From the NCBI GenBank assembly GCA_046152935.1, contig JBJXGB010000222.1:1648-65647 (forward strand): DNA of 64,000 nucleotides, read 5' to 3'. Source of the DNA: Cytophagales bacterium (GTDB taxonomy: Bacteria; Bacteroidota; Bacteroidia; Cytophagales; UBA9547). This document shows positions 12,580 through 64,000 of this stretch, in pieces; the first letter of the stretch is position 1, and every line of letters starts with the position of its first letter. The translations under genes were made by a program, and so were the position numbers. A model generated the notes under the pieces. The model was not told the DNA's origin, made no database searches, and saw only the letters and a list, made by a program, of their open reading frames with translations.

Positions 12580-12589
12580 AATTCTATAA

Positions 12590-44888: not shown

Positions 44889-45047
44889 TTGGTAAAGTTT
44901 ATAATTAAATAGTCCATATCCTTCAATGAGAAAAACTACGAAATATGATTATTAAATCTAGTAAAAACTGAATATAAACACAATTTTAATTAATTGCGAT
45001 TCAAAACCAACTTATTTATGTCAATCAAATGATTTATTAATGATTTA

Positions 45048-48923: not shown

Positions 48924-49913
48924 TTATTGTGTCTCCAATATCTTGAAAAGTTCGTCTAATTTTGGTGTGAGAATGATTTCTGTTCTTCGATTTTTTTGGC
49001 GAATTTCAGCCGACTTGCCATCGACAATTGGTAAAAATTCTGCCTTTCCAGCAGGCGTTATTTTTTGAGGTTTTACGCCTTCGGCAATTAATATTCTGGT
49101 AATATCGGTAGCGCGCAGCACACTCAAATCCCAATTATCTCTAAAAGCTGCATTGGTATTTTTGGCTACAGGCACATCATCGGTATGGCCTTCGATCATC
49201 ACATTTACTTCGGGCTGATTTTTCAAAACGCTTCCCAATTTACGCAGTGCTTCTTCGCCTTTTTTATCTACCGAAGTGCTACCAGAGCCGAAAAGAAGCT
49301 TTTCTGAGAGAGAAACATAAACCTTGCCATTTTTTACATTCACAGTAAGCCCATTGTCTTTAAATGAAAGCAGGGCATCGGTAACGCTATTTCTCAACGC
49401 CAAAACGGCACTGTCTTTTTGAGCCATTATTTGCTGCAAATCTTTTAATTTCGACTCTCGCTCTTTCAAATCTGTCAGCAATTTATCATTAGTCGACTTG
49501 GTGAGCATCAGCGATTTTTCCAAATCCAACAGTTGTTGCTCCTTTCTTGCCAAATTTGACGACATTTGGTTCGATTCGGCCGAATAATTGGCAAGCAAGT
49601 CTTTGTAATCTTTACGTAGTCTGTCGCCAGTGGCAGTTTGTTCTTCGAGCAGCTTTTGAATTCGAGAAATATTATCGGCTTTCAAAGTAGTATCCAGCAT
49701 CAATTCTTTTGCGATATTGTAGAGATTGACTATCTGTTCGGATTTAGTTTTGTTCAATGTTTTGTTGGCGTTCAAGCTATCTTGGCATTCAGAAAAATCG
49801 GCATCTAATCGCAGTTTTTTGGCAAGTAACTCATTGTGCTTTTTGCTTGAAACACAAGAACTGAAGACAATTACAAAGCCAAGAATGCCTGTTAATATTT
49901 TGATACTTTTCAT
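48924..49913 (-). CDS. OmpA/MotB-domain lipoprotein with long coiled-coil region
   Basis: Lipobox VFSSC, a ~180-aa coiled coil, and a C-terminal OmpA-like domain (IEGHTDDVP...NWDLSVLRATDITRIL...NRRTEIIL). Confidence 0.8.
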   Translation of the reverse strand: MKSIKILTGILGFVIVFSSCVSSKKHNELLAKKLRLDADFSECQDSLNANKTLNKTKSEQIVNLYNIAKELMLDTTLKADNISRIQKLLEEQTATGDRLRKDYKDLLANYSAESNQMSSNLARKEQQLLDLEKSLMLTKSTNDKLLTDLKERESKLKDLQQIMAQKDSAVLALRNSVTDALLSFKDNGLTVNVKNGKVYVSLSEKLLFGSGSTSVDKKGEEALRKLGSVLKNQPEVNVMIEGHTDDVPVAKNTNAAFRDNWDLSVLRATDITRILIAEGVKPQKITPAGKAEFLPIVDGKSAEIRQKNRRTEIILTPKLDELFKILETQ

Positions 49914-50656: not shown

Positions 50657-51742
50657 TTATATAAATGGGAACTTTGTCACTAATGCCTTTACCTTATTTT
50701 CTCTTATTCCAATAAAAATTTCTGTGCCAATTGTTGAAAATTCCTTTTTCACATATCCCAAACCTATTCCAACACCAAGAATGGGCGATTGTGTTCCAGA
50801 TGTAACTTCTCCAATTTTTTCTTCTTGCGCGTTGAATATTTCGTAATGACTTCGAGGAATTCCTCTTTCTACCATCTTAAAACCCACGAGTTTTTTAGCT
50901 ACACCAGTTTCCTTTTGTAATTTCAGCACCTCTGAATTAATGAAATTCTTTTCAAAACTTGTGATCCAACCTAAGCCAGCTTCAATTGGCGAGGTGGTGT
51001 CATCAATATCATTGCCGTACAGACAAAATCCCATTTCCAATCGCAGCGTATCTCGAGCTCCTAATCCGATTGGTTTGATGCCAAATTCTTTTCCTGCTTC
51101 CAAGATAGCATTCCACATTTCAACTGCGTTTTCATTTGGAATATACACTTCAAAGCCGCCAGCACCAGTGTAGCCAGTATTGGAGATCAAGATGTCCTTA
51201 ATGCCAGCCAATTCAATTTTATGGGCGAAGGTATAATACGACAAAGTCGCTAAATCGAAAGAAGTTAGCTTTTGCAATGCCAATGTTGCTTTGGGCCCTT
51301 GCACGGCAAATAAGCACAATCTATCAGATAAATTCTCTAATTCTGCCCCAAAACTGTTGTTTTTATTGATCCAATTCCAATCTTTCTCAATATTTGAAGC
51401 ATTTACCACCAAAAAATAAGCCTCGTTTGCGATACGATATACAAGAATATCATCTACAATTCCACCATTATCATTCGGCAAACACGAATATTGCACTTTT
51501 CCATCATGCAGTTTTGCTACATTATTGGATGTTACAAATTGTAATAAATCAAACGCTTTGGGCCCACTCACTAGAAATTCGCCCATGTGTGATACATCAA
51601 AAATACCTACTGCATGTCGCACATTGTTGTGCTCATCGATATCAGATGAATACCTTACCGGCATTTCAAAACCCGCAAACGGCACAATTTTGGCACCCAA
51701 TTGCGTATGTACTTGGTGTAGAGGAACTTGCTTTAAATTCAA
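50657..51742 (-). CDS. gcvT: glycine cleavage system aminomethyltransferase T
   Basis: [18 protein letters not shown]...[11 protein letters not shown]...GYTGAGGFE are GcvT blocks. TTG start at 51742. Confidence 0.93.
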
Positions 51743-52139
51743 TTTTAATTATATTATGTTCGTGAGGGCAAAAGTATCATTTTTTAATGAAAGAGCCTCA
51801 TTATTCTGTCACTTGAGCTAGCTCAGCACTTACTCGGCAAAAAACCAAACATCGATTCAAAAAGCACCGTGAACTCTCGCTGAAACAAAGATGAGCACAA
51901 AACAAAAACAATAAAAAAAAGCCTCAATAAAAGTACACATTTGGCATTTATTACTAAACGAAAAGCGAGACAAAAATTTCGTAATATATTCATTATCAAT
52001 GTATTGTGTAACAATTACTGTTACAAATATTCAACCTATCTGAGACAGCATAAAATAGCGTTTGTTTTTATTCTAAAAATAATTGCTTACATTTAAAGCT
52101 TGTTGAATTTACAATAGGCAAAACCACCATACTAACACG

Positions 52140-55100
52140 ATGAATTCTATTTTAAAAAGAGTTCTTGAGATAGATGATAAAGAAGTAACCCCAGTATTGC
52201 TACTTCTGGCAAACTCATTTTTTATAGGGGTATTTATCGTGAGCTACGATGTCGCGGCAAACACGATTTTCCTCAACACGTTTGGTACCGAATATTTAAC
52301 ACGTATTCCCATATTTTCCGGAGCTTTGGGCATGATTTCCACCTCAATTTTTGCATATTTTCAACGAAGATTGCCATTTACACGCCTCACTCTATATTGC
52401 TTTAGCATTATTACCATCATAGTAGCCGCACTTTTTTTTGGGCTAGAATTTTACGACAGTCGTGCTTTGAAATTCGTTTCCTATTTACTTTTAGGTCCAA
52501 TCAATACCATTTTTATTCTGTGTTTTTATGGTACAGTTTCTCGTTCTTTCTCATTAAAAAGAGAGCGACACATGACAGGTACGGTAGATCAGGGCCAGAT
52601 GATCGCTACTGCTATCGCCTATTTCACGATTCCACTCGTTTCAGGCATTGTAGTTGATATTACAAAATTTTTCATTGCCAGCGTCATTAGTGGATCGTTA
52701 GCATTCGTGTTCATGTTTATTTTTCTGGTAAAATATGGCATAAATGCCCAACTAGAACGCAGTATCACCCATAATCAACGAGCGAGCAACACAGAATTGG
52801 CCGCCAGCCCTTACGTGCGGATGCTTGCTATGGTGTTTTTTGGCTCAGTACTGGCCACTATCTTTTTAGAGTATTCGTTCCTTACCGTAACAGTCGAAAA
52901 ATACAAAGACCAAGATTCTTTGGCCAGTTTTTTGGGTATTTATGGTGGATTGGTGACGGTATTTAGTGTGATCTTACAGACTTTCGTGGCCGATAGGGTC
53001 ATAAAATTGTATGGGATGAAAATATCTTTGATTTTAATTCCTAGCATATTGGGGCTATTTGCCATCTTGGCATCTTTAATTGGCACGTTTTTTGGCTACA
53101 CGGCCAACGATTCCAGTTTTATTCTCTTCTTTTTGTTTATGGCCATGAGCAAGTTATTTCTTCAATCGCTCAAGGAAGCATTTGAAGATCCTATTGTTAA
53201 AAACTTGTTTATCCCACTCGATTCAAAAAAACGCTACGATATTCAAACCAAAATAGAAGGCTTTTTCAAAGAATTTTCTGGTTTCATTGCAGGTACACTT
53301 CTCACGATTGTCAGTTATTTCAGTTTTGTAAATTTAATTTTTTACTCATATTTCCTTGCTGCTATATGTGCATTCTATTTTTATGTAGTAATAAGGCTGT
53401 TCGTTGAATATCGAAAAAACCTCACAGAAGCCTTGTTGAAGCAACAAGGCAAAGAAGCTGAAAGCGATAAGAAAGAATACGAAGTTACTGATGTACTAAT
53501 AAAAGAGTTGGAAACTGGCAATGTGAATACAATTATTTACACGCTCAAATTACTAGAAAAAATAGAGCCCATCATGGCTGAAGGTCGATTTACAAAATAC
53601 CTGAACGATCAAAACAAAGACCTGAGACAATATTCATTGCTTAGGCTTGAATCAAATAGAGCACTTAAAGCAATTGAAGAAATAACAAAACTAGAAGCCA
53701 GAGAAAACGACCCAGAAATAAAGTTGCTTGCCAGCAAAGCGCTAAAGGAATTAAACAACACCGACAGGGTAGAAATTGGTCATTTAATGACGTACACTTT
53801 GGTAAAATCAAAAAAGGTAGAAACTAGGATATATGCTGCGAGGCTCATTGCCAAAACTACAGAAGATGCTTATTTGCCCCAATTAATGCTTCTTTTGCGA
53901 GATTTGGACCCGAAAGTACGCTTTGCGGCCATGATATCTTCGGCACAAATGCAAAGAACAGAGACCTGGCCCATATTAATAGAATACCTATCTTCTTACA
54001 CATTTTGCAATGTTTCGGCTGCCGCTCTCATTACCTTTGGCGAATTGGTATTGCCTGCACTTGAAGCAGCATTTTATAAAACCAATCAATCGGCTACTAT
54101 TCAAGAAAAAATAGTGCAGATATATGGCAGAATTCAGGGCGATAAAGTGATCTCTCTGCTTTGGAATAAGATTGATTTTCCCGACAAAAAGATAGTAAAT
54201 AATGTTTTATTGTGTTTGAGTAGTTGCGGTTTTAGGCCAGAAGGCGATCGTATTGTGCGTATAAAACAGCAAATCGAGTCTGAAATTGGTAATTCGGCTT
54301 GGAACATTGCAGCCCTTACCGAAATACCGCAAACTGAAGAAACCATATTGCTAAAACAAGCATTGGAAGAGGAGATAGCCTTTAATTTCGAGAACATTTA
54401 TATGCTATTGGCTTTGATATACGATTCTCAAGCCATCAAATTAGTGAAAGACAATATTGAATCTGGCACCGTAGAGGGGTTGGTATATGCAATAGAGCTA
54501 ATCGATGTGTTTATGGCAGAGGAATTGAAACCTATATTTCTGCCATTGATAGAAGACATCTCGCAATCGGAGCGCACAGAAAGATTGCAAGGGAGCTTTC
54601 CAAGGCAAAAACTTGACAGCATTGAAGTGCTAAAACAAATCATCAACCGAGATTATAATAAAGTAAATAAATGGACCAAAGCCTGTGCCATGTATTGCTA
54701 CGCAAATATGCAAGAATCTGAAATGTGCGATGATCTTACGGCCAATTTATTCAACCCCGACCCCTTATTAAGAGAAATATCTGCTTGGTCGATCGTTAAG
54801 AAAGATTATTACAGCTACAAACAAAATTCGAATCGATTGGTAGAAAATATAAGAAAAGAGCTTGATTCACAATTTTTAAATGCCACCCATGATGAAAACG
54901 AGCCTAGAAAACAATTGAGCAGAATTGAAAAAATATTTTTCCTAAAAGAGCTTCCGGCTTTTAAAAATGTTCCGGGTGTTATTTTGGTAGAGTTTGTAGA
55001 GCTAATTGAAGAGGTGATAATAAAAAAAGATGCGGTAATTCTGGATTTTGGCGCTACCGGACAGTCGCCACTTTATATTATTGTAAAGGGAAACGCAGAG

Positions 55101-55364
55101 GTAAAAAGCGAATCTGGCGAAATCATTACAATCATTGGCGAAAAGGAAATGATAGGAGAAATGCTAATACTCGATACCGACCACAACCATCACGAAATTA
55201 TTGCCTCAGAAGATTGCATTCTATTTAAAATAGACAAAGACCGATTTCTGGAGCAAATCACTGATAATTTTGAAATTGCAAAAGAATTAATCCAAGTAAT
55301 TTCTTCAAAATTCAAAGCCATAGAAGAAATAAAGATAGAATCGAAAGAAGTGTTTGAAAGCTAA
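52140..55364 (+). CDS. polytopic membrane protein: 12-TM transporter-like domain + HEAT/ARM-like repeats + C-terminal cyclic-nucleotide-binding-like domain
   Basis: 12 hydrophobic helices in aa 1-425. HEAT-like repeats in aa ~450-900 (LRDLDPKVRFAAMISSAQ, ENDPEIKLLASKALKEL, NPDPLLREISAWSIVKK). CNB-like beta-roll in aa 926-1055 (FLKELPAFKNVPG...IIGEKEMIGEMLIL...). Confidence 0.7.
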   Translation: MNSILKRVLEIDDKEVTPVLLLLANSFFIGVFIVSYDVAANTIFLNTFGTEYLTRIPIFSGALGMISTSIFAYFQRRLPFTRLTLYCFSIITIIVAALFFGLEFYDSRALKFVSYLLLGPINTIFILCFYGTVSRSFSLKRERHMTGTVDQGQMIATAIAYFTIPLVSGIVVDITKFFIASVISGSLAFVFMFIFLVKYGINAQLERSITHNQRASNTELAASPYVRMLAMVFFGSVLATIFLEYSFLTVTVEKYKDQDSLASFLGIYGGLVTVFSVILQTFVADRVIKLYGMKISLILIPSILGLFAILASLIGTFFGYTANDSSFILFFLFMAMSKLFLQSLKEAFEDPIVKNLFIPLDSKKRYDIQTKIEGFFKEFSGFIAGTLLTIVSYFSFVNLIFYSYFLAAICAFYFYVVIRLFVEYRKNLTEALLKQQGKEAESDKKEYEVTDVLIKELETGNVNTIIYTLKLLEKIEPIMAEGRFTKYLNDQNKDLRQYSLLRLESNRALKAIEEITKLEARENDPEIKLLASKALKELNNTDRVEIGHLMTYTLVKSKKVETRIYAARLIAKTTEDAYLPQLMLLLRDLDPKVRFAAMISSAQMQRTETWPILIEYLSSYTFCNVSAAALITFGELVLPALEAAFYKTNQSATIQEKIVQIYGRIQGDKVISLLWNKIDFPDKKIVNNVLLCLSSCGFRPEGDRIVRIKQQIESEIGNSAWNIAALTEIPQTEETILLKQALEEEIAFNFENIYMLLALIYDSQAIKLVKDNIESGTVEGLVYAIELIDVFMAEELKPIFLPLIEDISQSERTERLQGSFPRQKLDSIEVLKQIINRDYNKVNKWTKACAMYCYANMQESEMCDDLTANLFNPDPLLREISAWSIVKKDYYSYKQNSNRLVENIRKELDSQFLNATHDENEPRKQLSRIEKIFFLKELPAFKNVPGVILVEFVELIEEVIIKKDAVILDFGATGQSPLYIIVKGNAEVKSESGEIITIIGEKEMIGEMLILDTDHNHHEIIASEDCILFKIDKDRFLEQITDNFEIAKELIQVISSKFKAIEEIKIESKEVFES

Positions 55365-55378
55365 TAATAAAATCGGAG

Positions 55379-56860
55379 ATGAATTTTACATTTGATATAT
55401 ACATAAGCTATGCTTTAAAAGATAATCACCAAACTGACTCTCAAGCAGGATGGGTGAGTAATTTTCAGCGTTTTTTAGAAACTCTCATCTTTCAAATTAT
55501 GGGCGAAAAGCCTAGTTTTCTAAATTATGAAAGCCAAGAAAAACCTGCAAAATCAGAATTAGTAAAAGTGGCGGTGTTTGTATGCATTGTTTCGCCAGAA
55601 TATGTAAAAAGCGAGTCTTCGATCGAAGAGATAGACGACTTTTTCAATATAGCCAACACCAACGGAAATCTATTCGTCAATGGCAAAGAAAGGGTACTTA
55701 AGGTAGTGAAATTTCCAGTTCCAATGCTAGAGCAGCCGACTAAAGTAGCGAATCTATTGGAATACGATTTGTATCAAACCGATAGTATCACTGGACAGCC
55801 TAATGAATTTGTAGATTTTTTCAATATTGAAGCTCAAAGAAAATATTGGCTAAAAATAGTAGACTTAGCTTACGATATTTCTGCGATCTTAAAATCAAAT
55901 CGGAAGCGTAGCGTAGCTCAACAAGACTATTCGATTTACAACGAAAAAAATGTGTATTTAGCAGAATCCGGCTTTGATTTACAACTACATAGAGATAGCA
56001 TCAAACGCGAACTTACCAGACATGGTTTCCGTGTTTTGCCCGACCACGCCTTGCCCACAAATCTGTTAGAACTTGAATTAGCCATCAAAAAAGACATCGA
56101 ACGCTCGAGGCTTTCCATACATTTGGTTGGCGATAGCTATGGTGAATATGCGCCCACATCTCCCAAATCAATACTAGAAATTCAGAATAAACTGGCTGGT
56201 GATCACAGCATTATTTCATCTGGCTCTGCAAACAGTAGATTTAGCCGTCTGATCTGGATTTCGCCCGATGCAAAACTCGACAATGACAAGCAAAAAATGT
56301 TTATCGATAATTTGAGGCGAGATCTTGAAGCCAATGAAGGAGCTGAAATACTTCAGTCGCCCATTGAAGACTTCAAAATGGTGGTTTTAGGAGAATTACT
56401 AGATTTGAACATTGAAAAATTAAAAAGGGAAACCATTTTGAGTGGTCAAATTAACCAAGACAAAAAAAACATTTATCTTATATTTGACAATGTAGATCGG
56501 ATTGAAGCTCAGAAAATAGCCGATTTTTTAAATTACAAGGGCTATCAAACAATATTGCCTTCTTTTGAAGGCGAACTTTTAGAATTGAGAGAAATTCATC
56601 TCAATAATTTGAAACAATGCGATGCAGCCCTCATCTACATTGATAAAGTAAATGATTTGTGGGTACAAATGAAATTTTTAGATTTGCTAAAAGCACCTGG
56701 ACTAGGCCGTACAAAACAAGAGCTATTCAAAGCCCTTGTTTTAGGCAAAGATGTCAAAAATAGAGCTGGAGATTTGAATAAATTCGATGCCCCAGTATTT
56801 GAAATAAACGACAATATTGAAAATTCATTAGCCGGATTTATCAAAGAATTTGCACTATGA
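55379..56860 (+). CDS. protein with an N-terminal TIR-like domain followed by two further TIR/flavodoxin-like modules
   Basis: FDIYISYALKD...W...VAVFVCIVSPEYVKSESSIEEI fits the bacterial TIR pattern (D[IV]FISY..D; S..Y..S.....E). Internal repeats KNVYLAESGFD...GFRVLPD and KNIYLIFDNVD...GYQTILP. Confidence 0.65.
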   Translation: MNFTFDIYISYALKDNHQTDSQAGWVSNFQRFLETLIFQIMGEKPSFLNYESQEKPAKSELVKVAVFVCIVSPEYVKSESSIEEIDDFFNIANTNGNLFVNGKERVLKVVKFPVPMLEQPTKVANLLEYDLYQTDSITGQPNEFVDFFNIEAQRKYWLKIVDLAYDISAILKSNRKRSVAQQDYSIYNEKNVYLAESGFDLQLHRDSIKRELTRHGFRVLPDHALPTNLLELELAIKKDIERSRLSIHLVGDSYGEYAPTSPKSILEIQNKLAGDHSIISSGSANSRFSRLIWISPDAKLDNDKQKMFIDNLRRDLEANEGAEILQSPIEDFKMVVLGELLDLNIEKLKRETILSGQINQDKKNIYLIFDNVDRIEAQKIADFLNYKGYQTILPSFEGELLELREIHLNNLKQCDAALIYIDKVNDLWVQMKFLDLLKAPGLGRTKQELFKALVLGKDVKNRAGDLNKFDAPVFEINDNIENSLAGFIKEFAL

Positions 56861-59800
56861 CACCTGAAATAAATACCAACCAAGACGTAGCCAAGCAAAA
56901 GCTGGTAAAAAATCACAGCAACCCATTCCCAGGCCTGCGACCATTTAGCATGGACGAAAGCCATTTATTCTTTGGGCGAGAAGGGCAAAGCGATGAAGTT
57001 TTGAGGAAAATCTCTGAAAATAAATTCGTAGCTGTCATTGGCTCGTCTGGCAGCGGAAAGTCGTCTTTTATATATTGTGGCGTAATACCAATATTATATG
57101 GTGGTTTTCTTACAAAAATTGGCACTAATTGGGACGTAATCGTTACCAGACCAGGCGGTGGCCCAATCGACAACTTAGCCGAATCTATAGCCAAAAAAGA
57201 TAAAAATTACAGTTCACTCACTAGAGAGGAAAAAACCTTACAAAAAACCATCACTTCTACGCTTCTAAGAAGCAGCTCCTTGGGCATAACGGAAGCGGTG
57301 AGTAAATACACCGAGACTGAGAACACCAATATATTGTTAATAGTCGATCAATTTGAAGAATTATTTCGTTTCAAAAAGAATGAGGAAAACGAAGGAAGCA
57401 GTGAATCATTGGCGTATGTAAATCTTTTGGTAGATGCGGTACAAAATGCAGGAAACCACATATATGTAGCAGCCACAATGCGATCCGATTTTATAGGCGA
57501 ATGTGCTCAATTTCCACAACTTACAAGACTTATCAATCAAAGTAATTACCTTATTCCTCAAATGACGAGGGAACAAAAACGCTCAGCAATATTTGGGCCA
57601 GTTTCTGTTGGTGGAGCTAAAATTACACCTCGTCTTTTGCAACAAATATTAGGCGATCTGGGCGACAATCCCGATCAATTGCCGATCATGGCGCACTCAT
57701 TGATGAGGACTTGGGATTACTGGCAAACAAATAAAGAAGACAATGAGCCAATGGATTTACCTCATTATGAGGCCATTGGCACTATGTCGGGTGCACTTTC
57801 TCAACATGCCAATGAAGCATACGATGAGCTAAATGCCCGTGAGAAAGAAATCTGTGCCATTCTTTTTAAATGCTTAACAGAAAAAACTGGTGATTCTGAT
57901 GGCATTCGCAGACCAACTCGGGTAAATGTGATCTCGAAAATTGCCAATTGCACAGATGATGAAATAATAAATATCGTTGAGGTTTTTCGTAAGCCAGGTC
58001 GGTCGCTCATCATGCCACCTTTTGGTGTAAATCTTTCACCAAATTCGATAGTCGATATTTCGCACGAATCTTTAATGCGAATATGGGTACGACTCAAAAA
58101 CTGGGTTGATGAAGAAGGGCAAGCCGTAGAAATGTATTTACGACTTTCAGATGCTGCTTCCAAATACCAAACTGGAAAATCTGGAATGTGGAGACCACCA
58201 GATTTGCAATTGGCTTTAAATTGGCAAGAAAAGAATATTCCGACATTGGAATGGGCTGTGAGATACAACCCTGCTTATGAAAGAACGATGGTTTTTCTTG
58301 AAACAAGTAAGAAAGCCTTTGAAACAGAGCAGAAAGTAAAAGAGGAACAGCAACGTAAAAGATTGGCTCAAGCCACTCGCACGGCCCTTTTTCTAGGGGT
58401 GCTTACCGTATTGGCGTTGGTAGCATTTGTGTATTCGTTTATATTGAAAATTGAGGCAGACAAACAAACAGGCCTTGCAAAAGAAAGCCAATTACAAGCA
58501 ATAAAACAATCTAAACTGGCCACAAAAAATGCCAAATTAGCTGAAGAGCAACGGATAATTGCCTCTGCAAAAGAAAAAGAAGCAGTTTTGCAATCAGAAG
58601 AAGCCAAGCACCAAAAAGAATTGGCTTTGGTAGCTGCCGATGAGGCGAATTTGCAAAAATCTTTTGCTCAAAAAAGCTTAGTAAGAGCCAACGTGCAAAC
58701 CAAAATTGCTGAAGAACAGAAAGCATTGGCTCTATTAAATGAGCAGAAAGCCAAAGATTCGCAAATAAAGGCAGAAAGAGCCCAAACTGACGCCTCAAGA
58801 CAACGTTTTTTATCTATTGCACAAGCCATGTCCGTGAAATCTTTGCAGATTTTAGATACCACGACCAAAGTGCTGGTGGCTCAACAAGCGTTCAAATACA
58901 ACCGAGATTTTAAAGGAAATCCACACAGCCACGATGTATACGATGGCTTGTATTACGCTACAAAATTTCTTTTTCACGACAATCATAATAGCCTAAAAGG
59001 CCATTCGGATGCTGTGAGAGGTGTGGTATTCGCTCCAAATGGAGATTTGTACACCGCAGGAAGCGATGGAAAAGTACTAAAATGGAGCATGGAAAATGGG
59101 ATATATAAAAGTGTATTATTCCATAAAAATTCCTTTATCAACAGAAATATCATAATCAGCAGCAACGGCAAATGGCTGGCTTTGGTTGGCGAAGCACCAT
59201 TTATACAACTGTTTGATTTATCAAACCCAAACAGCAAGCCCAAAAAGCTGTATGGGCATAAAGGACAAATCTGGACAGCTACTTTCATGCCTGACAACCA
59301 AAATTTGGTTTCAATTGGTTCTGATAGTTCTATTCTGATGCGAAATTTGGATACTGACAAATATTTTTTAGTAGCTAAAACGAGCACAAAAGTCAAAACA
59401 CTAGCTACCAGTTCTGTTGGCAATTATATAGCAGGTGGCGATGAAATCGGCAATATTTTTGTTTGGGATGTTGGCAAAACGAAAGCCCCAATGGTAATTA
59501 CATCAAAAAACCTTAAGAAAATACAATCTCTATCTATTAGTCTGGATGGTAAATATTTGGCAGCTGGCGATGAACATGGTTTGGTGAAAATATGGGACGC
59601 ATTCGATAACTTCAAATTGACAGCCAACCTTACAGGCCACCGATCTCGCATTAATGATTTAAAATTTGACCCAAAAAGTGAAGTTCTAGCAACAGCCAGC
59701 TTCGATGGAAGCGTAAGAATGTGGGATTTAGATCACTTAAACGAGCAGCCAATTACACTTCGAGATCACAATTCTTGGGTTTGGTCCGTAGCTTTTACAG

Positions 59801-60006
59801 GCGATGGTCTAAACATAGTAACAGGCTGTGTAGATAATTTAATCAGAATTTATCCGACCAATGCAGAATCTATGGCCGATAAAATATGCTCGAAATTAAA
59901 ACGCAACATGACACCTGCCGAATGGACTGCCTATGTAGCCAAGGATATTAGCTTTGAAGAAACATGCCCAGGATTGCCTCAAGGTAGAAATCAAGAATTG
60001 GAATAG
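56857..60006 (+). CDS. STAND-type P-loop NTPase - single TM helix - coiled coil - WD40 repeat protein
   Basis: NPFPGLRPFSMDESHLFFGRE + Walker A GSSGSGKSS (57040-57063) + Walker B ILLIVDQFEELF. TM helix TALFLGVLTVLALVAFVYSFIL (58381-58446) preceded by RKR..R. ~125-aa A/K/E/Q coiled coil. At least 6 WD40 repeats (GHSDAVRGVVF...GSDGKVLKW; GHRSRINDLKF...SFDGSVRMWD). The ATG overlaps the upstream stop (ATGA). Confidence 0.8.
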   Translation: MTPEINTNQDVAKQKLVKNHSNPFPGLRPFSMDESHLFFGREGQSDEVLRKISENKFVAVIGSSGSGKSSFIYCGVIPILYGGFLTKIGTNWDVIVTRPGGGPIDNLAESIAKKDKNYSSLTREEKTLQKTITSTLLRSSSLGITEAVSKYTETENTNILLIVDQFEELFRFKKNEENEGSSESLAYVNLLVDAVQNAGNHIYVAATMRSDFIGECAQFPQLTRLINQSNYLIPQMTREQKRSAIFGPVSVGGAKITPRLLQQILGDLGDNPDQLPIMAHSLMRTWDYWQTNKEDNEPMDLPHYEAIGTMSGALSQHANEAYDELNAREKEICAILFKCLTEKTGDSDGIRRPTRVNVISKIANCTDDEIINIVEVFRKPGRSLIMPPFGVNLSPNSIVDISHESLMRIWVRLKNWVDEEGQAVEMYLRLSDAASKYQTGKSGMWRPPDLQLALNWQEKNIPTLEWAVRYNPAYERTMVFLETSKKAFETEQKVKEEQQRKRLAQATRTALFLGVLTVLALVAFVYSFILKIEADKQTGLAKESQLQAIKQSKLATKNAKLAEEQRIIASAKEKEAVLQSEEAKHQKELALVAADEANLQKSFAQKSLVRANVQTKIAEEQKALALLNEQKAKDSQIKAERAQTDASRQRFLSIAQAMSVKSLQILDTTTKVLVAQQAFKYNRDFKGNPHSHDVYDGLYYATKFLFHDNHNSLKGHSDAVRGVVFAPNGDLYTAGSDGKVLKWSMENGIYKSVLFHKNSFINRNIIISSNGKWLALVGEAPFIQLFDLSNPNSKPKKLYGHKGQIWTATFMPDNQNLVSIGSDSSILMRNLDTDKYFLVAKTSTKVKTLATSSVGNYIAGGDEIGNIFVWDVGKTKAPMVITSKNLKKIQSLSISLDGKYLAAGDEHGLVKIWDAFDNFKLTANLTGHRSRINDLKFDPKSEVLATASFDGSVRMWDLDHLNEQPITLRDHNSWVWSVAFTGDGLNIVTGCVDNLIRIYPTNAESMADKICSKLKRNMTPAEWTAYVAKDISFEETCPGLPQGRNQELE

Positions 60007-60042
60007 CCATAAATTATTACTTTAATAGACTTATTATAGAAA

Positions 60043-61110
60043 ATGTCAATTCGTATTTTCAAAAAAGCAATTCAATACATGTTGCCATTCGTAGTGTTTG
60101 CTTCTTCCGCACAAATCCCACTTAAAAGTTCGTGTAGTCAAAAGCTAAAGGAGATGCAAAAAAACTATGAGCAAGGCATTTTATCCACCATAGCAAACGA
60201 TTTGGAAGATTGTATGTTTGACGGATTTACAAAAACCGAAAAATTGCAAGGCTATAGGCTCATTATTCTTTCTTATTTGTTTCTTGATGAGAACAGAAAT
60301 GCCGAGAAAAAAATGAACGAGTTGTTGGTATATGAGCCTGATTACCAACCAAATAAAGCTTTAGATCCGGTTGAATATGTAAAACTTTACGAATCTTTCA
60401 ATGTATTGCCCAATATTTCGTTTGGCGTAAGTATAGGTGCGAATCAAAGTGCTGTAAATGCTGGATCGACCTACGGAGTTGGAAATACGGAGGTCATTCC
60501 AGTAAAATTTACTGGTGGAATTGGCTTAAATTTTGGCGTTTGTGCAGATTTACTTCTCTATAAAAATCTATTCTTGACTGTTGAAGGATATTATACAACA
60601 AAAAACTTTAGTTCTAAGCAACCCATTCTTAACTCCTCAGAACTCAATACCACCGAAAGTCAAACATCTATTAGCACTCCGCTCACCTTAAAATACTCAA
60701 TTGGCACCCGAAAAATAAGATTTTTTGTGCGATCAGGCTTTTCATTAGATTACTTACTAAGCTCTCAAAACGAATTGATAAGAAAAAACATTATTACAGA
60801 CCAAAACGACTTTGCGGGAGCCAGTATAAGTATGGATAGTCAAAGAAATAAAATTAACTTTTCGGCAGTATTTGGGGGTGGCATTACCTACAAATTAGGG
60901 TACGGTTTTGCCTTCATCGATGCTAGGTATTTGTACGGCCTCACCAATTATTCTAATTCAAAAGTTAGATATAATTTTTTCGACACCCAAGTCACTAATT
61001 ATGGCTATGTCGACCCAGATTTTGGATTAAATAATGTTCAGTTGAGTATAGGATATATGTATTCTCTCTATAAAGTAAAGAAGAAAAAAAGTAATTTTAT
61101 CATTGATTAA
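60043..61110 (+). CDS. outer-membrane beta-barrel protein with N-terminal helical (TPR-like) domain
   Basis: Signal peptide (MLPFVVFASSAQ). ~95-aa helical region. Then alternating beta-strand pattern typical of small OM barrels (FGVSIGANQS, GGGITYKLGYGFAFIDARYLYGL, LSIGYMYSL). Confidence 0.6.
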   Translation: MSIRIFKKAIQYMLPFVVFASSAQIPLKSSCSQKLKEMQKNYEQGILSTIANDLEDCMFDGFTKTEKLQGYRLIILSYLFLDENRNAEKKMNELLVYEPDYQPNKALDPVEYVKLYESFNVLPNISFGVSIGANQSAVNAGSTYGVGNTEVIPVKFTGGIGLNFGVCADLLLYKNLFLTVEGYYTTKNFSSKQPILNSSELNTTESQTSISTPLTLKYSIGTRKIRFFVRSGFSLDYLLSSQNELIRKNIITDQNDFAGASISMDSQRNKINFSAVFGGGITYKLGYGFAFIDARYLYGLTNYSNSKVRYNFFDTQVTNYGYVDPDFGLNNVQLSIGYMYSLYKVKKKKSNFIID

Positions 61111-61111
61111 T

Positions 61112-62386
61112 ATGCGATTATCTTTATTCAACAAATCATCGATTTGCCTTTTAATATTTTTTTCAATCGTCAATTTTGTGGGCTGCAATAGAATTGATGT
61201 ATCTCCCAATCTATCGAAAGCGTTCATAAAATTTTATGGGGGAAATGGCTCAGAAATTTCTTCTAAAATGCTGCTGTTGAACGATGGTTCTTTCTTGATG
61301 CTGGGCACAAGCTCCTCTTTCAACACAAATGACACAACAGATATTTATTTGGTGAAATCCAATGACAAAGGCAATAAAATTTGGGAAAAAAACTATGGCA
61401 ATGGTCTTTTTGAAATCGCAGAGGTAATACGCAAATCGACCGACAATACGGTGGTGATGCTTGGCACTTCTGGCGATGTAGCCACAGGAAATGCAAGCAT
61501 TTATCTTGCTAAAATCAACCCAAACGATGGTGCATTGGTTTGGCAAAAAACATTAAAAAACAACAACAAAAGTACATACGGTTATGATCTTTCTGTTGAT
61601 GCCAGTGGTTCAATATTTGTGGTGGGTGCTACGGACACGCTTACGAATATTGGCCTGTTGAAAAATGTATATATCACCAAATTAAATGCAGACGGTTCGG
61701 AAAATAACACCATTCCTACCCTAGGGCTAGATAGCAGAAATAATCTTGCTAGAAACATTATTGACATCAATGGCAATGAGGTTTCTTGCTTGGTAAATAC
61801 CACTATTTCTGTTGATGTAAACGGCTCTCCACAGACACAAGCTTCCCCTATTTTTGTAAATATTAAGCTTGATGTTGGTCGAGCTACATTGCAAGTAAAC
61901 AAAAGCTCGCCACAAATCGGTGAATTGAGCATACAAAATGCTAACCAGATGAAAAAAACAGCTGATGGGGGTTACATCGTAGTGGGCTCCTGTATAAAAA
62001 ACGGAGTCAAAAATATGTATTTACTCAAATTGGATAAGGATTTTAACAAAACTGACGGCAAAGGTTGGTTTCAGTTTTATAGTGATGAGGGCGATAGTGA
62101 AGGCTTAAATGTGATCCAATGCACTGATGGGGGCTATGCGGTTTGTGGCACTACCTTTTCGAATACTTTTAATAATAATATTGCACTGCTTCGTACCAAT
62201 GCCAATGGCGATGCATTGTTTATGAAAAATTATGGCGGAACTGGCAATGATTTGGGGACAGATATTACCCAAACAAACGATGGTGGATTTGCCATTTTGA
62301 GCACCATAGAATTATTAAATTCACCACAAAACAGGCCCGTGATGTCGCTCCTAAAGACCAATGCCAATGGTAATTTAGAAAACTAA
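61112..62386 (+). CDS. lipoprotein built from ~6-7 beta-propeller-like repeats
   Basis: Lipobox NFVGC. Repeats of the form [DG]G[GS][FY].[IV].G.T......D.[YL]L.K.N..G...W (e.g. DGSFLMLGTSSS...DIYLVKSNDKGNKIW; DGGYAVCGTTFS...IALLRTNANGDALF). ATG 1 nt after the upstream stop. Alternative TTG at 61103. Confidence 0.6.
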   Translation: MRLSLFNKSSICLLIFFSIVNFVGCNRIDVSPNLSKAFIKFYGGNGSEISSKMLLLNDGSFLMLGTSSSFNTNDTTDIYLVKSNDKGNKIWEKNYGNGLFEIAEVIRKSTDNTVVMLGTSGDVATGNASIYLAKINPNDGALVWQKTLKNNNKSTYGYDLSVDASGSIFVVGATDTLTNIGLLKNVYITKLNADGSENNTIPTLGLDSRNNLARNIIDINGNEVSCLVNTTISVDVNGSPQTQASPIFVNIKLDVGRATLQVNKSSPQIGELSIQNANQMKKTADGGYIVVGSCIKNGVKNMYLLKLDKDFNKTDGKGWFQFYSDEGDSEGLNVIQCTDGGYAVCGTTFSNTFNNNIALLRTNANGDALFMKNYGGTGNDLGTDITQTNDGGFAILSTIELLNSPQNRPVMSLLKTNANGNLEN

Positions 62387-62424: not shown

Positions 62425-64000
62425 ATGAAAATAAAATTAACTTTATTATTTCAGGTATTTGCCCTCTTTATTTTTTTTTGTTGCCAAGGTCAAATCAATG
62501 TTTCACCTGCTACTGGAGGGATAAATATTTGTACTGGTTCGGTCGCAACTCTTTCGAATATTACAATTACAGCATCTAATATAAATGATTTTAATAATGG
62601 TTCGAACACCAACGATGATGGCTACAAATTATTTTTGCCAACGGGTTTCATTTTTGCTGAAGTGCCAGCTGTCACTACCATATCTGGCTCTACTAATATT
62701 GAAATAGATTATGGATATGTAGGTACAGTTACATCATCTACATTTCGATTTAGATATTCTACTTCGGGTTCAGTTGCAGTAAATGACGGTTTTGTCATTT
62801 CAAATATAAAAGTATTGTCTACCTCTGCTGGATTTGGTTTTATTACAAGAATTAATGATGGTCTGTTAAACAACGATGCGACTGTAACAGGAAGTTATGG
62901 CATAAATTATGGTTTGCTTTCAAGTATCAACACACCGAATTTAACGCCAATAGTAGCTAATGCATCAGTCTGCGGGGCAGATTTGATTAGTTTTGTACCC
63001 AACACAGTGTCAGGAGTTAGCTACAATTTTTACACGATGAGCAATAATTTGGTGGCCATGAATGCTACCTCTTACTCAAAAACCTATGCGAATGGTGTAG
63101 TTGAGAGCTTTCAAATTGCGCCAGTTTCTGGAATCTGCCAAGCAAATAATAGTCTTTGGGCTACCGTTACTGGCACTTCCTTCAATGTACCTTCTGCACC
63201 GTCTGCAGCAAACACCACTAGCCAATTAAGCGTATGCGAAGGTTCGGGGTCAAATCCTACACTGTCTGTCACGGGCGGAACATTATTCAACTGGTACGCA
63301 GATCAGAATCTCACTATTTTACTTGGGTCATCTTCTGGTGGCTACATTCCTTCACCTGCAATCATTACGTCAGCTGCGGGTGCAAATTTCGACTATTATG
63401 TCACTAGCAAGCAAGGAGATTGCGAAAGTCCTTCGAGAAAAATATCAGTAACGGTAACAGATGTGCCTAGCTTTTTGATTACAAATTTGTCATCGAGCTA
63501 TTGTGCTAGTTCTCAATCTATTACGATAAATGCATTCCCAACTATTTCAGGTGCAAATGGCATATTTACTGCTACAAAACTTTCGGGACCAGGAAATATT
63601 TCAAATTTTTTAACTTTTACTGGCGGTAATTATAGCGTATCACCTGCCAATGTCACAGGATTAAGTTCAACTACTGGCACAAATATAAATTTGATATATA
63701 CTGTAACTGTAAATGGATGTGTTTCAACTGCTTCAAATACTACCAATATATTTGCTTTGCCATCTGTAGATTTTGTTTTGCCAAGTAGCCCTACTCTTGG
63801 TTTAATTAGGGATACTGACCCTCCTTTCTCATTGGTAGGAAGCCCTGCAGATGGTAGTTTTGCAGGAACTGGTGTTGCAGGCAATGATTTTGACGTACGA
63901 TTATTAACAACTGGTACTTACACAGTTACGTACACTGCCAGCTTAAATGGATGTACAAACAGTATCAACAAAAACATTACTGTAGTAACCAATACAGGCA
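62425..64000 (+). CDS. large secreted cell-surface protein with Cys-containing Ig-like repeats, 5' part (runs off the right edge)
   Basis: Own translation: MKIKLTLLFQVFALFIFFCCQGQINVSPATGG..., open to position 64000. Recurring units with C.G/NGC and '...WY' (LSVCEGSGSNPTLSVTGGTLFNWYAD...GDCESPSRKISVTV). These resemble Ig-like repeats of Cytophaga-type gliding/T9SS adhesins. Confidence 0.6.
   Translation, partial: MKIKLTLLFQVFALFIFFCCQGQINVSPATGGINICTGSVATLSNITITASNINDFNNGSNTNDDGYKLFLPTGFIFAEVPAVTTISGSTNIEIDYGYVGTVTSSTFRFRYSTSGSVAVNDGFVISNIKVLSTSAGFGFITRINDGLLNNDATVTGSYGINYGLLSSINTPNLTPIVANASVCGADLISFVPNTVSGVSYNFYTMSNNLVAMNATSYSKTYANGVVESFQIAPVSGICQANNSLWATVTGTSFNVPSAPSAANTTSQLSVCEGSGSNPTLSVTGGTLFNWYADQNLTILLGSSSGGYIPSPAIITSAAGANFDYYVTSKQGDCESPSRKISVTVTDVPSFLITNLSSSYCASSQSITINAFPTISGANGIFTATKLSGPGNISNFLTFTGGNYSVSPANVTGLSSTTGTNINLIYTVTVNGCVSTASNTTNIFALPSVDFVLPSSPTLGLIRDTDPPFSLVGSPADGSFAGTGVAGNDFDVRLLTTGTYTVTYTASLNGCTNSINKNITVVTNTG

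Follow-up and report, generated by a model that had tools for sequence, protein, structure and literature searches.

A candidate six-gene trans-envelope signalling operon around a STAND NTPase in Cytophagales

TIR, STAND and CNB domains are typical of immunity. In a Cytophagales bacterium all three are encoded in one compact cluster together with predicted outer-membrane proteins, which raises the question whether this locus serves defence or signalling across the envelope. We analysed a stretch of 64,000 nucleotides containing the cluster (the window). An ORF check revealed five plus-strand ORFs in series (g1 to g5, Table 1), separated by 14, −4 (ATGA), 36 and 1 nt, and the coordinates and spacings of a preliminary description proved exact. 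While its five genes are real, it had overlooked a sixth plus-strand gene for a predicted giant T9SS cargo (g6), which starts 38 nt past g5 and exits the window. The gcvT gene (50657-51742, minus strand, Pfam GCV_T) is located upstream and is divergent from g1. The interval between both genes, previously described as an AT-rich region of about 400 bp, is non-coding as expected but only mildly AT-rich, since its GC content is about 0.35 compared to 0.35–0.41 within the cluster. It yielded no Rfam family match at E ≤ 1 and no excess of sigma-70-like matches over shuffled sequences. Likewise, promoter and terminator signals between the cluster genes were no higher than the shuffled expectation. 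Gene order and spacing predict that g1–g6 form a compact operon. In the literature searched this six-gene operon, a variant of STAND/TIR systems, is without prior description.

Table 1 Predicted features of the cluster in the window
Feature	Position	Strand	Basis or detail
Presumed operon promoter region	51743..52139	.	397-bp non-coding, gcvT-g1 interval
g1, NTT-HEAT-cNBD inner-membrane protein, 1074 aa	52140..55364	+	Pfam, profile, AF2, Foldseek
g1 residues 1-440, ~12-helix NTT/TLC (MFS-fold) transporter domain	52140..53459	+	hydropathy, AF2, NTT matches
g1 residues 441-940, cytoplasmic HEAT-repeat solenoid	53460..54959	+	HEAT_2, AF2, AlphaRep
g1 residues 941-1074, CNB-fold domain, non-canonical phosphate-binding cassette	54960..55361	+	Pfam cNMP_binding
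g2, cytoplasmic, three tandem TIR-like domains, 493 aa	55379..56860	+	AF2, Foldseek
g2 domain 1 (aa 1-175), TIR domain	55379..55903	+	TIR_2; Glu84 at canonical catalytic position
g2 domain 2 (aa 190-343), DUF4062-like	55946..56407	+	DUF4062; Gln269-Asn270 instead of catalytic Glu-Tyr
g2 domain 3 (aa 358-493), diverged duplicate of domain 2	56450..56857	+	hhalign, conservation
g3, transmembrane nSTAND1 NTPase - coiled-coil stalk - WD40, 1049 aa	56857..60006	+	Pfam, hydropathy
g3 residues 23-440, cytoplasmic nSTAND1 NTPase	56923..58176	+	Walker A GSSGSGKSS, Walker B VDQFEE, intact
g3 residues 507-529, single transmembrane helix (N-in)	58375..58443	+	Kyte-Doolittle
g3 residues 531-665, periplasmic coiled-coil stalk	58447..58851	+	composition, periodicity
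g3 residues about 700-1049, periplasmic WD40 beta-propeller	58954..60003	+	Pfam WD40/propeller
g4, outer-membrane beta-barrel, 355 aa	60043..61110	+	signal peptide + small N-terminal helical (TssQ/TPR-like) domain
g5, beta-propeller lipoprotein, 424 aa from ATG	61112..62386	+	signal peptide then Cys (FVGC)
g6 (partial), giant secreted Ig/PKD-like repeat surface protein, N-terminus	62425..64000	+	signal peptide, 525-codon open frame

The gene order of the cluster was found in at least 561 species genomes, and cultured genera with the cluster include Fulvivirga, Chryseolinea and Ohtaekwangia. The order g1–g4 is identical wherever a related locus includes sufficient flanking sequence, as expected for the single operon proposed earlier. 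Homologues were co-localised in all informative loci, clearly against the refuting case of dispersed homologues named in the preliminary description. An ORF of about 400–456 aa follows g4 in 58 of 59 loci, and an ORF of more than 1,100 aa reaching the locus end follows g5 in 57 of the 59. The flanks consist of housekeeping genes in conserved synteny, with queA in 44 of 47 loci and MR_MLE in 41, neither plasmid nor viral homologues of the cluster were found, and the entire window is free of tRNA genes, in line with the absence of a flanking tRNA noted before. Because of the number of species, the housekeeping flanks and the lack of plasmid and viral copies, we regard the cluster as vertically inherited core genome; hundreds of Cytophagales species carry the operon as a fixed chromosomal component.

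Nearly all domain assignments of the preliminary description (cNMP_binding, nSTAND1, WD40, HEAT_2, TIR-like, barrel, propeller lipoprotein) were recovered. In Pfam searches g3 matched nSTAND1 with 304.5 bits (E 2e-90), and more than 20 WD40/propeller models matched residues 713–1015. Walker A and Walker B are near-invariant among orthologues and the NTPase shows a median identity of 64%, the highest of any cluster domain, which argues for a switch-competent g3; the WD40 part shows 33%. The transmembrane helix reaches a Kyte-Doolittle value of 2.58 (19-residue window), is hydrophobic across all orthologues and is flanked by an RKR..R cluster on its N-terminal side, while a signal peptide is absent before the NTPase. 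The stalk lacks Pro and Gly, contains 26% Ala, is rich in E, K, Q and R and shows a hydrophobic periodicity of 3.5 residues. Its length among orthologues is quantised, with 128 aa in 49 loci and 135 aa in 20 loci, a difference of one heptad. This pattern points to a rigid coiled coil of about 19–20 nm that varies in heptad steps. By its predicted topology, g3 keeps the NTPase in the cytoplasm, is anchored in the inner membrane and carries the WD40 propeller into the periplasm toward the outer membrane.

The barrel match of g4 is weak in the window (NCBIfam TDE1717, E 8e-7), and orthologues match Pfam OMP_b-brl_2. Residues 31–105 match TssQ_fam in an NCBIfam search. For one g4 orthologue a weak PorT/SprT match, far under the cut-off, was observed. 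In g5 a Cys terminates the N-terminal segment in 10 of 10 displayed orthologues (of 59), and a strict lipobox regex matches 38 of the 59. Weak delta-60, SBBP and PQQ_2 propeller repeats are present in the window, the first two of which recur among the fast-diverging orthologues (20–35% identity). The g4 barrel and the g5 propeller lipoprotein are predicted outer-membrane partners, and together with the single transmembrane helix, stalk and WD40 part of g3 they agree with the envelope-spanning layout suggested previously. The window covers the N-terminal part of g6, and its T9SS sorting tail is known from orthologues. Five full-length orthologues comprise 1,979–5,116 aa with fn3, PKD_4 and Por_Secre_tail, and the N-termini are unconserved from genus to genus. 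Judged by these orthologues, g6 is predicted to be a giant, fast-evolving T9SS-exported surface protein.

On the cytoplasmic side, the AF2 model of g2 (pLDDT 80) shows three beta-alpha domains with plant TIR domains, SARM1, TIR-STING and NDT as best Foldseek matches. TIR_2 scores 26.5 bits, slightly below the gathering threshold (GA) of 28, and DUF4062 24.9 bits, slightly above its GA of 24.7. The domain 1 motif SPEYVKSESSIEEI was matched by alignment to SxxYxxSxWCxxE. Of 83 Cytophagales orthologues, 6 retain its Glu84, solely in the subclade of the window, and the other 77 lack it, mostly with T, N or H instead; 101 of 151 wider-family members have E or D at this position. In domain 2, Tyr193 is followed after 76 residues by Gln269, whereas the corresponding spacing in Evangelion leads from F11 to E87-Y88. 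A Gln occupies position 269 in 81 of 83 orthologues, and the wider family has it in 137 of 151 members. Domain 3 has no Pfam match and no Glu but aligns to domain 2 (hhalign probability 80%, E 1.4e-5) and carries invariant W428, K432 and D435 and a (K/Q)(A/S)xGxGR motif. The preliminary description had proposed that the NTPase activates the TIR modules, against which the Gln-Asn pair of domain 2, the missing Glu of domain 3 and the loss of the domain 1 Glu in most orthologues argue.

The ATGA overlap suggests translational coupling between g2 and g3. Fusions of the triple-TIR module to nSTAND1, kinases or CHAT occur elsewhere: one protein (P0470) combines it with nSTAND1, and in another locus (L093) a kinase-triple-TIR gene precedes an nSTAND1 gene by 4 nt. 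Given the nSTAND1 fusions in other lineages, g2 appears to be an N-terminal part of the STAND protein that is encoded here by a gene of its own. Based on Gln-Asn in place of Glu-Tyr, the domain 1 Glu loss and the kinase and CHAT fusions, g2 would mainly be a scaffold or adaptor and not a dedicated NADase. Because domain 1 keeps Glu84, NAD+ chemistry is possible for the g2 of the window.

A profile of g1 built from 48 homologues matched solved ATP/ADP translocators (AtNTT1, E 4.5e-21; C. pneumoniae NTT1, E 6.7e-18) over residues 12–441, and both are also the best Foldseek matches of its AF2 model (pLDDT 83; TMt 0.57–0.74). Homologues are labelled 'ATP:ADP antiporter, AAA family' at JGI. A hydropathy scan revealed 11–12 transmembrane segments in the N-terminal part, concordant with the AF2 helix map. 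The middle region is an all-helical repeat in the model, with HEAT_2 (42.2 bits, residues 554–619, Pfam) and AlphaRep HEAT matches in the PDB. The C-terminal domain matches cNMP_binding (48.1 bits, GA 27.5) as well as PKG, PKA and CRP (profile and Foldseek). The Arg of its phosphate-binding cassette is Asn in the window and K, P, N or E among orthologues, with a median identity of merely 20% for the domain. As modelled, g1 thus combines a predicted transporter of the NTT fold, a large HEAT platform in the cytoplasm and a CNB domain that is degenerate. The NTT-HEAT-cNBD fusion family to which it belongs was reported in 2017, its function there being unknown (PMC5381601). The missing Arg and poor conservation leave the earlier idea that a nucleotide product gates the 12-helix protein without direct support.

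The preliminary description had considered a non-defence role equally possible. This branch is now favoured, and a classical defence role of the cluster is possible but less likely. TIR, STAND and CNB domains are hallmarks of immunity, Glu84 is retained in the g2 of the window, and the wider triple-TIR-nSTAND1 family is found in conflict-type neighbourhoods (L092). However, the cluster itself has housekeeping syntenic flanks and no viral or plasmid homologues, its g2 carries Gln-Asn for Glu-Tyr in domain 2 and, in 77 of 83 Cytophagales orthologues, no domain 1 Glu, and PADLOC returned zero matches, so that it is unclassified as a defence system, as previously stated. ThsA, CD-NTase and cyclase partners are absent from it, also in agreement with that description. 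A patchy defence island was rejected in view of at least 561 species, queA in 44 of 47 flanks and zero plasmid or viral copies.

Variant clusters from 'Bacteroidales' MAGs contain a HAMP-SpoIIE phosphatase, either inserted (L090, L091) or substituting g2 (L086, L088), with g3 proteins 42–48% identical and the clusters otherwise orthologous. As this phosphatase joins or replaces g2, the output points to regulatory signalling and not to killing. Moreover, a membrane-anchored molecular-switch ATPase reaching across the periplasm and linked to a giant surface protein looks more like an integral device for envelope signalling than like a mobile system against phages. We give about even odds to the view that these six vertically inherited genes encode an apparatus for signalling across the envelope, built around a STAND switch and functionally tied to a giant T9SS-exported surface protein.

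The protein interactions in such an apparatus were all deduced from the order of the genes, from fusions and from topology. In it, the WD40 propeller of g3 would sense the state of the g4/g5/g6 assembly, i.e. contact, load, damage or loss. This readout would allow the cytoplasmic NTPase to exchange its nucleotide and oligomerise, which in turn would cluster g2. Clustered g2 would yield a regulatory output, mainly as a scaffold and possibly by residual domain 1 TIR chemistry where Glu84 survives. The output would be the HAMP-SpoIIE (RsbU-type) phosphatase in the 'Bacteroidales' MAG variants and g1 in the cluster of the window; the role of g1, putatively transport and coupling to g2/g3, is the weakest link of the model. 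Instead of obligatory suicide, the result would be physiological regulation, for instance of the state of the surface or of adhesion, of envelope stress or of the exchange of nucleotides.

The five reading frames g1 to g5 of the preliminary description are present on the plus strand, separated by 14, −4 (ATGA overlap), 36 and 1 nt. While these five genes stand, the cluster is longer than described: a sixth co-oriented reading frame with a signal peptide (g6) begins 38 nt past g5 and had been overlooked. Upstream of g1 a spacer of 397 bp was found as reported, but its AT enrichment is only mild. This leader of about 400 bp matched no Rfam family at E ≤ 1 and thus contains no known riboswitch. 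Consensus scans for promoters and terminators yielded counts equal to the shuffled expectation, Bacteroidota promoters lying outside the consensus of the scan, and no internal terminator above chance was detected within the cluster. No tRNA gene was found anywhere in the window, which agrees with the flanks as described before. The coordinates of all features are given in the Table.

Coordinates of the genes, surrounding features, variant clusters and fusions considered in this study
Sequence	Position	Strand	Feature
Window	39502-43102 and 48924-49913	−	upstream envelope genes
Window	43206-47102		two ORFs (560 and 684 aa) without Pfam match
Window	52140-55364	+	g1, NTT-HEAT-cNBD inner-membrane protein
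Window	55379-56860	+	g2, three tandem TIR-like domains
Window	56857-60006	+	g3, transmembrane nSTAND1 NTPase-stalk-WD40 protein
Window	58447-58851	+	stalk of g3 (residues 531-665)
Window	60043-61110	+	g4, outer-membrane barrel
Window	61112-62386	+	g5, propeller lipoprotein
Window	62425 to window end	+	g6, giant secreted surface protein, partial
L086	2854-15988		variant cluster with HAMP-SpoIIE phosphatase (metagenomic)
L088	10001-23132		variant cluster with HAMP-SpoIIE phosphatase (metagenomic)
L090	6748-22049		seven-gene cluster ('Bacteroidales' MAG)
L091	6821-22058		seven-gene cluster ('Bacteroidales' MAG)
L087	18955-23000		Trypco1 and Trypsin-nSTAND1-WD40 pair
L089	152-4546		distant NTT-HEAT protein (1310 aa), then separate 152-aa cNMP-binding gene
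L092 (P0470)	10001-12919		triple-TIR-nSTAND1 fusion
L093	5121-7979		triple-TIR fusion with kinase
P0381, P0399, P0401, P0410, P0434, P0441			further triple-TIR fusion examples

The envelope genes on the minus strand upstream of the cluster encode a 700-aa PD40+OmpA protein of PorE-like architecture, a DUF5723 protein and a 329-aa OmpA-domain protein. A divergent TPR/PD40/OmpA gene (773-780 aa) adjoins the operon in 27 of 47 main-clade loci. The PD40-OmpA gene was considered as a seventh component and not counted, since only these 27 loci have it upstream and in the window it does not adjoin the operon.

The window derives from a Cytophagales MAG. Its g2 protein is identical to ACKVOU_12870 and has homologues of about 480 aa in Fulvivirga, Ohtaekwangia, Chryseolinea, Chryseotalea, Roseivirga-type and Cyclobacteriaceae genomes; a scan with one genome per species revealed relatives in at least 561 genomes. 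Fulvivirga lutea, Ohtaekwangia and Chryseotalea share a common gene order, with an NTT/HEAT/cNMP gene followed by g2, an nSTAND1-WD40 gene, an OMP_b-brl_2 gene, a gene for a protein of about 420-440 aa and a gene for a giant protein. For the comparison of neighbourhoods 80 loci from the species scan and four neighbourhood loci were used. As judged by tblastn, g1 to g4 are co-localised in the same order wherever the flank suffices, as the proposal of one operon had implied. An ORF of 400-456 aa lies 3′ of g4 in 58 of the 59 loci with enough flank, and a giant ORF running off the locus end comes next in all but one of these 58. The genes keep their sequence and tight spacing in two orders, where the proteins are 25-48% identical. 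The flanks in the main clade are syntenic and of housekeeping type, and of 47 loci 44 have queA and 41 a gene for an MR_MLE enzyme. No relatives of g2 were found on viral contigs or on plasmids. PADLOC, run on the five proteins, placed the cluster in no classified system and returned only sub-threshold CNB and P-loop matches, consistent with the earlier statement that it resembles no known defence system. According to the kept order, the housekeeping flanks, the lack of viral or plasmid copies and the lack of a PADLOC class, the operon appears to be vertically inherited and core-genome-like rather than a mobile defence island.

The domain calls made previously for the two membrane proteins, namely a cNMP-binding and a HEAT domain for g1 and a STAND NTPase and WD40 for g3, were matched by the profiles cNMP_binding, HEAT_2, nSTAND1 and WD40. 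In g3 the nSTAND1 domain (Pfam PF20703, residues 23-440) scored 304.5 bits against a GA of 27.1 (E 2e-90). This NTPase is the best-conserved domain of g3 (64% median identity), and its Walker A (GSSGSGKSS) and Walker B (VDQFEE) motifs are near-invariant in 70 orthologues. The protein has an N-terminus of 22 aa and a single strong transmembrane helix with an RKR..R cluster on the N-terminal side, so that everything past residue 530 is predicted to be periplasmic. The stalk that starts here lacks Pro and Gly, is rich in A, E, K, Q and R and shows a periodicity of 3.5 residues; as an isolated segment it gave nothing useful in Pfam at E ≤ 10. Its length is quantised among the window protein and 69 orthologues: 49 loci have a stalk of 128 aa and 20 loci one of 135 aa, a difference of exactly one heptad. 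The sequence suggests that the stalk is a coiled-coil ruler of about 19-20 nm, which would set the distance between the inner membrane and the WD40 propeller that follows it.

The products of the last three genes belong to the outer membrane and the cell surface. In the window g4 gave a weak signal for an outer-membrane barrel, and its orthologues carry OMP_b-brl_2 together with a small TssQ-like N-terminal domain. No match of the window protein to the curated NCBIfam models for PorP/SprF, PorT/SprT and PorQ was obtained. Assignment of g4 to PorT/SprT was rejected, as one orthologue reached 24.8 bits with a cut-off of 125. Pfam searches with isolated segments of g4 and g6 at E ≤ 10 returned nothing useful. 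The g5 protein shows weak propeller repeats in the window and delta-60/SBBP repeats in its orthologues, whose inspected N-termini consist of a signal peptide and a following Cys. Among the g5 lipoproteins of the window, L001, L002, L004 and other loci, several carry acidic residues in the stretch +2 to +5 past the Cys that is lipidated (CNDEMD, CNNIED, CQSEDN). Such a pattern is similar to the surface-export signal of Bacteroidota, and therefore g5 may be surface-exposed instead of periplasmic. Orthologues of g6 from Fulvivirga lutea, Ohtaekwangia and Chryseotalea comprise 2,075-5,116 aa with fn3, PKD_4 and Por_Secre_tail domains and thus represent T9SS cargo; Por_Secre_tail, a type-A CTD, is present on five full-length orthologues. 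A conserved N-terminal docking domain was not found on g6, the N-termini being unrelated between genera. Both g5 and g6 diverge fast. The source contig has 67,739 bp and extends about 3.7 kb beyond the window; with so short a remainder, the assembly probably breaks within the repeats of the giant g6 and cuts the gene short.

On the cytoplasmic side, the AF2 model of g2 (pLDDT 80) contains three beta-alpha domains. The best fold matches found by Foldseek were TIR domains, SARM1, TIR-STING and nucleoside deoxyribosyltransferase, with a TMt of 0.63 for SNC1, while searching the PDB sequences with a profile of g2 gave chance matches only (E about 1). Domain 1 matched TIR_2 with 26.5 bits, slightly below the GA of 28, and members of the wider family reached 29-59 bits. 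Glu84 of the window protein occupies the canonical TIR catalytic position, and the WC of the motif SxxYxxSxWCxxE is replaced by SS. This Glu is kept in 6 of 83 Cytophagales orthologues; in the other 77 it is replaced, for instance by T, N or H. In the wider family E or D is found at this position in 101 of 151 members, and SxWCxxE is mostly kept. Domain 2 is a marginal match to DUF4062 over residues 192-267, with 24.9 bits against a GA of 24.7. Work from 2026 identified DUF4062 as a TIR-like NADase domain with a catalytic Glu, E97 in KpSwz and E87-Y88 in Eva01, the latter 76 residues after F11 (bioRxiv 10.64898/2026.05.01.722283; 10.64898/2026.06.25.731849). The catalytic Glu-Tyr of the acidic-SYT region was not found in domain 2 of g2: with a register inferred from motif and spacing (Tyr193 plus 76 residues), its position corresponds to Gln269-Asn270. 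Among the 83 orthologues 81 have Gln at position 269, and among the 151 members of the wider family 137 do. Domain 3 is a diverged duplicate of domain 2 (hhalign probability 80%, E 1.4e-5); it has no Glu at the equivalent position, and its isolated segment gave nothing useful in Pfam at E ≤ 10. The exchange of Glu-Tyr for Gln-Asn and the loss of the domain 1 Glu from most orthologues point to a shift of the TIR/DUF4062 module of this locus from enzyme to adaptor, as it appears from these residues.

Variant clusters show that the second position of the operon is exchangeable. In two metagenomic loci (L086, L088) a HAMP-SpoIIE phosphatase, a membrane protein with two TM helices and a periplasmic sensor domain, takes the place of g2; neither cluster contains a TIR-like gene, and g3 is 42-43% identical. 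Two 'Bacteroidales' MAGs (L090, L091) carry seven genes, including both the HAMP-SpoIIE phosphatase and a 462-aa orthologue of g2 that retains Gln at the catalytic position. At least 120 matches above 56% identity were found for the phosphatase family. Since the phosphatase replaces or joins g2 in these variants, the core of the system is made up of g1, g3, g4, g5 and g6, and the second slot holds a swappable signalling module. A profile search with the triple-TIR module revealed 1,314 cluster representatives at E ≤ 1e-30. The module occurs fused to Ser/Thr kinases (at either end), to a CHAT protease and to nSTAND1 (P0470). In L093 a gene for a kinase-triple-TIR protein lies 4 nt upstream of an nSTAND1 gene whose product is 46% identical to g3, and in L092 the fused triple-TIR-nSTAND1 gene is located beside NACHT-FGE-sulfatase and PIN toxin-antitoxin genes and transposases. 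From these fusions and contexts it follows that g2 is a detachable N-terminal partner of nSTAND1 and that other lineages use this partner in conflict-type contexts.

Only the family profile and the predicted structure revealed the NTT nature of the g1 protein. The window sequence alone gave no Pfam TLC match, and its isolated TM segment was uninformative even at E ≤ 10, although TLC or MFS_1 is seen in some homologues. Among solved structures, a profile built from 48 homologues matched the ATP/ADP translocators AtNTT1 of plastids (E 4.5e-21) and CpNTT1 of chlamydiae (E 6.7e-18), and the same two proteins were the best superpositions of the AF2 model (pLDDT 83) in Foldseek, with a TMt of 0.57-0.74. 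HEAT_2 scored 42-48 bits and cNMP_binding 48 bits (GA 27.5). On the basis of these profile and fold matches g1 is an NTT-HEAT-cNBD fusion, a protein type reported by Major, Embley & Williams 2017 (PMC5381601), who assigned it no function. The CNB domain is the least conserved part of g1 (20% median identity). Its phosphate-binding cassette does not contain the conserved Arg (G-E...P-R-[ST]-A), which is Asn in the window and K, P, N or E in orthologues; judged by these residues, the CNB pocket is non-canonical. Distant homologues of g1 are also found in three loci without STAND partners (L085, L087, L089), and therefore an NTT-HEAT gene alone is not sufficient to define the system. About 6 kb from the distant homologue in L087, an unrelated genome, lies a conflict-type pair of Trypco1 and Trypsin-nSTAND1-WD40 genes; this closeness is probably coincidental. 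In L089 the NTT-HEAT protein and the cNMP-binding protein are encoded separately, an arrangement also reported by Major et al. 2017 (PMC5381601).

By its components the locus belongs to the nSTAND1 and NTT-HEAT-cNBD families. With the nSTAND1 conflict systems (Kaur, Burroughs, Iyer & Aravind, eLife 2020/2021, PMC8195603) it shares the nSTAND1 clade, a C-terminal repeat sensor and TIR-type modules as separate or fused N-terminal partners, and its triple-TIR module is exchanged for, or attached to, kinases and CHAT proteases in the way of the effector-associated adaptors of those systems. It differs from them in the membrane anchor and periplasmic sensor of g3, in the fixed operon with barrel, lipoprotein, T9SS cargo and NTT transporter, and in its core-genome-like rather than patchy or mobile occurrence. 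The three-part architecture of g1 exactly matches the family described in PMC5381601; that paper treats the proteins in isolation, whereas here g1 is the first gene of a STAND/TIR/surface-protein operon. The order of g2 and g3 mirrors eukaryotic TEP1/NWD1, in which DUF4062 is followed by a STAND NTPase and WD40, and domain 2 of g2 is linked to the 'NIR' NADases (Swarozyc, Evangelion, TEP1/NWD1) by its marginal DUF4062 match and its TIR-like fold. In contrast to these enzymes, g2 has Gln-Asn for Glu-Tyr, three tandem domains instead of one and no AUX domain, the context is the core chromosome and not a plasmid or defence island, and the NTPase is a transmembrane nSTAND1 and not NACHT. Avs/NLR-like systems, Thoeris, Pycsar and CBASS have elements in common with the operon (a STAND switch with repeat sensor, TIR, CNB on a membrane module), but the sensor here is periplasmic, catalytic and ligand residues are partly degenerate and the distribution looks vertical. 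The partners reported before as absent are indeed lacking: no SIR2 or SLOG domain is encoded by any of the six genes and PADLOC gave no match for Thoeris (ThsB TIR with ThsA SIR2 or Macro/SLOG), and no cyclase domain (PycC, CD-NTase) is present in the cluster or its conserved neighbours. The Pycsar-related PADLOC signal consists of weak CNB-domain similarity to PycTIR, and all P-loop matches to Avs models were sub-threshold. Avs proteins combine an effector fused at the N-terminus with a TPR-type sensor in the cytosol, whereas the N-terminus of g3 is short and its sensor lies past the TM helix. The locus thus lacks what defines Thoeris, Pycsar, CBASS and Avs, and likewise the catalytic and contextual features of DUF4062 NADases. 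In LapD-LapG-LapA and SprB/SprF a giant repeat-rich surface protein is likewise encoded alongside outer-membrane partners and an inner-membrane protein whose periplasmic domain serves output or input. The likeness is no more than an analogy. The operon encodes no c-di-GMP module, LapG-type protease or PorP/SprF partner, and its cargo uses T9SS secretion with a type-A CTD. The phosphatase between g1 and g3 in the 'Bacteroidales' MAG variants resembles the RsbU/SpoIIE partner-switching phosphatases, but this gene is missing from the window cluster, and the loci yielded neither a STAS nor an anti-sigma partner. A literature search for STAND, WD40 and TIR with outer membrane or T9SS found no paper describing the operon.

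The analysis shows the predicted topology, the conservation of the operon, the linkage of g2 and g3, the intact NTPase motifs, the degenerate catalytic and ligand residues and the constant giant T9SS cargo gene. That the operon encodes a trans-envelope signalling apparatus has, in our estimate, an even chance of being correct. In such an apparatus the periplasmic WD40 domain would monitor the assembly of g4, g5 and g6 at the outer membrane, NTP-dependent oligomerisation of g3 would then cluster g2, and g2 would relay the signal to a regulatory output, which is g1 or, in the variants, the SpoIIE phosphatase. More specifically, and only tentatively, g3 could represent a trans-envelope receptor of a class not recognised before, an NLR/STAND switch whose periplasmic repeat sensor, kept at a set distance by a heptad-quantised coiled-coil ruler, surveys a hypervariable giant surface protein docked on the barrel-lipoprotein pair and whose cytoplasmic output passes through a TIR-like adaptor to a nucleotide transporter of the NTT family. 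In one version of this receptor, a nucleotide signal would be exported or imported, by which gliding Bacteroidota living on surfaces may signal surface contact or kin (allo)recognition. That the transporter, the STAND/TIR pair and the envelope proteins are unrelated genes that merely adjoin each other would fit the occurrence of the g1 family in other contexts without STAND partners. Chance adjacency is nevertheless almost excluded and its probability very small, given an order and spacing kept across two orders despite the low identity, overlapping or 1-nt junctions and no internal terminator above chance.

The defence model of the preliminary description, a fixed abortive-infection or anti-invader system, uses the same parts differently: g4, g5 and g6 would form a tripwire for phage adsorption or for attack by predators or competitors, the WD40 domain would sense and the STAND NTPase oligomerise, domain 1 of g2 would degrade NAD+ or make a nucleotide signal, and the NTT-CNB protein would dissipate nucleotides, so that the cell is killed or arrested. 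The domains nSTAND1, TIR_2, DUF4062 and CNB are of immune type, the DUF4062 proteins Swarozyc and Evangelion are proven anti-phage NADases, and the acidic residue of domain 1 is present in the window and in much of the wider family. The neighbourhood of the fused gene in L092 and the fast evolution of g5 and g6, as under arms-race pressure, also speak for defence. We still regard it as unlikely, since the operon keeps one order at one chromosomal site between housekeeping flanks in hundreds of species, plasmid or viral copies and a PADLOC match were not found, the domain 1 Glu is gone from nearly all Cytophagales orthologues and Gln-Asn stands for Glu-Tyr throughout domain 2. Furthermore, the CNB pocket is non-canonical with no cyclase in the operon, and the replacement of g2 by a SpoIIE phosphatase indicates a regulatory and not a lethal output. 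Signal flow could also be reversed, the operon being an inside-out controller, or an assembly or retention machine, of a giant adhesin in the manner of LapD/LapG/LapA or of SprB accessories. The NTT-HEAT-CNB protein, together with the TIR-like domains and the NTPase, would then sense the nucleotide state of the cytoplasm, and via the stalk the WD40 domain would hold, release or position g6 at the g4/g5 site. This would suit a giant T9SS cargo gene that is invariably last in the operon, a stalk of fixed length and heptad steps that resembles a structural strut across the periplasm, cytoplasmic parts with nucleotide-binding folds without clear catalytic residues, and carriers that belong mostly to the Cytophagales, an order noted for gliding bacteria. 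However, STAND NTPases are known to be ligand-triggered oligomerising switches with the C-terminal repeats as sensor, and this favours outside-in flow. Neither a protease nor a c-di-GMP module nor a PorP/SprF-type partner is encoded, and the PorT/SprT score of the g4 orthologue is far below the cut-off. In addition, cargo with a type-A CTD, as carried by g6, normally needs no dedicated partner, and the N-termini of g6 offer no conserved docking domain. An inside-out function is improbable as well.

STAND/TIR-type signalling is already known; unusual are the topology and the partner set of this operon. The locus is also a cautionary case: a tight operon with hallmark defence domains does not by itself justify the annotation as a defence system. 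The adaptor-like appearance of the TIR/DUF4062 module bears on the domestication of immune domains and on the architecture of TEP1/NWD1; if the periplasmic-sensor receptor is real, the operon would represent a bacterial split relative of their DUF4062-STAND-WD40 arrangement. STAND/NLR switches are known as cytosolic sensors, and a widespread form fixed in the chromosome, with its sensor propeller in the periplasm and connections to outer-membrane proteins and a giant surface protein, would bring NLR-type signalling into the cell envelope. The NTT-HEAT-cNBD family occurs in cyanobacteria, chlamydiae and oomycetes. The operon provides a concrete and testable set of genomic partners for these proteins and, should g3 act as such a receptor, would give them their first functional context.
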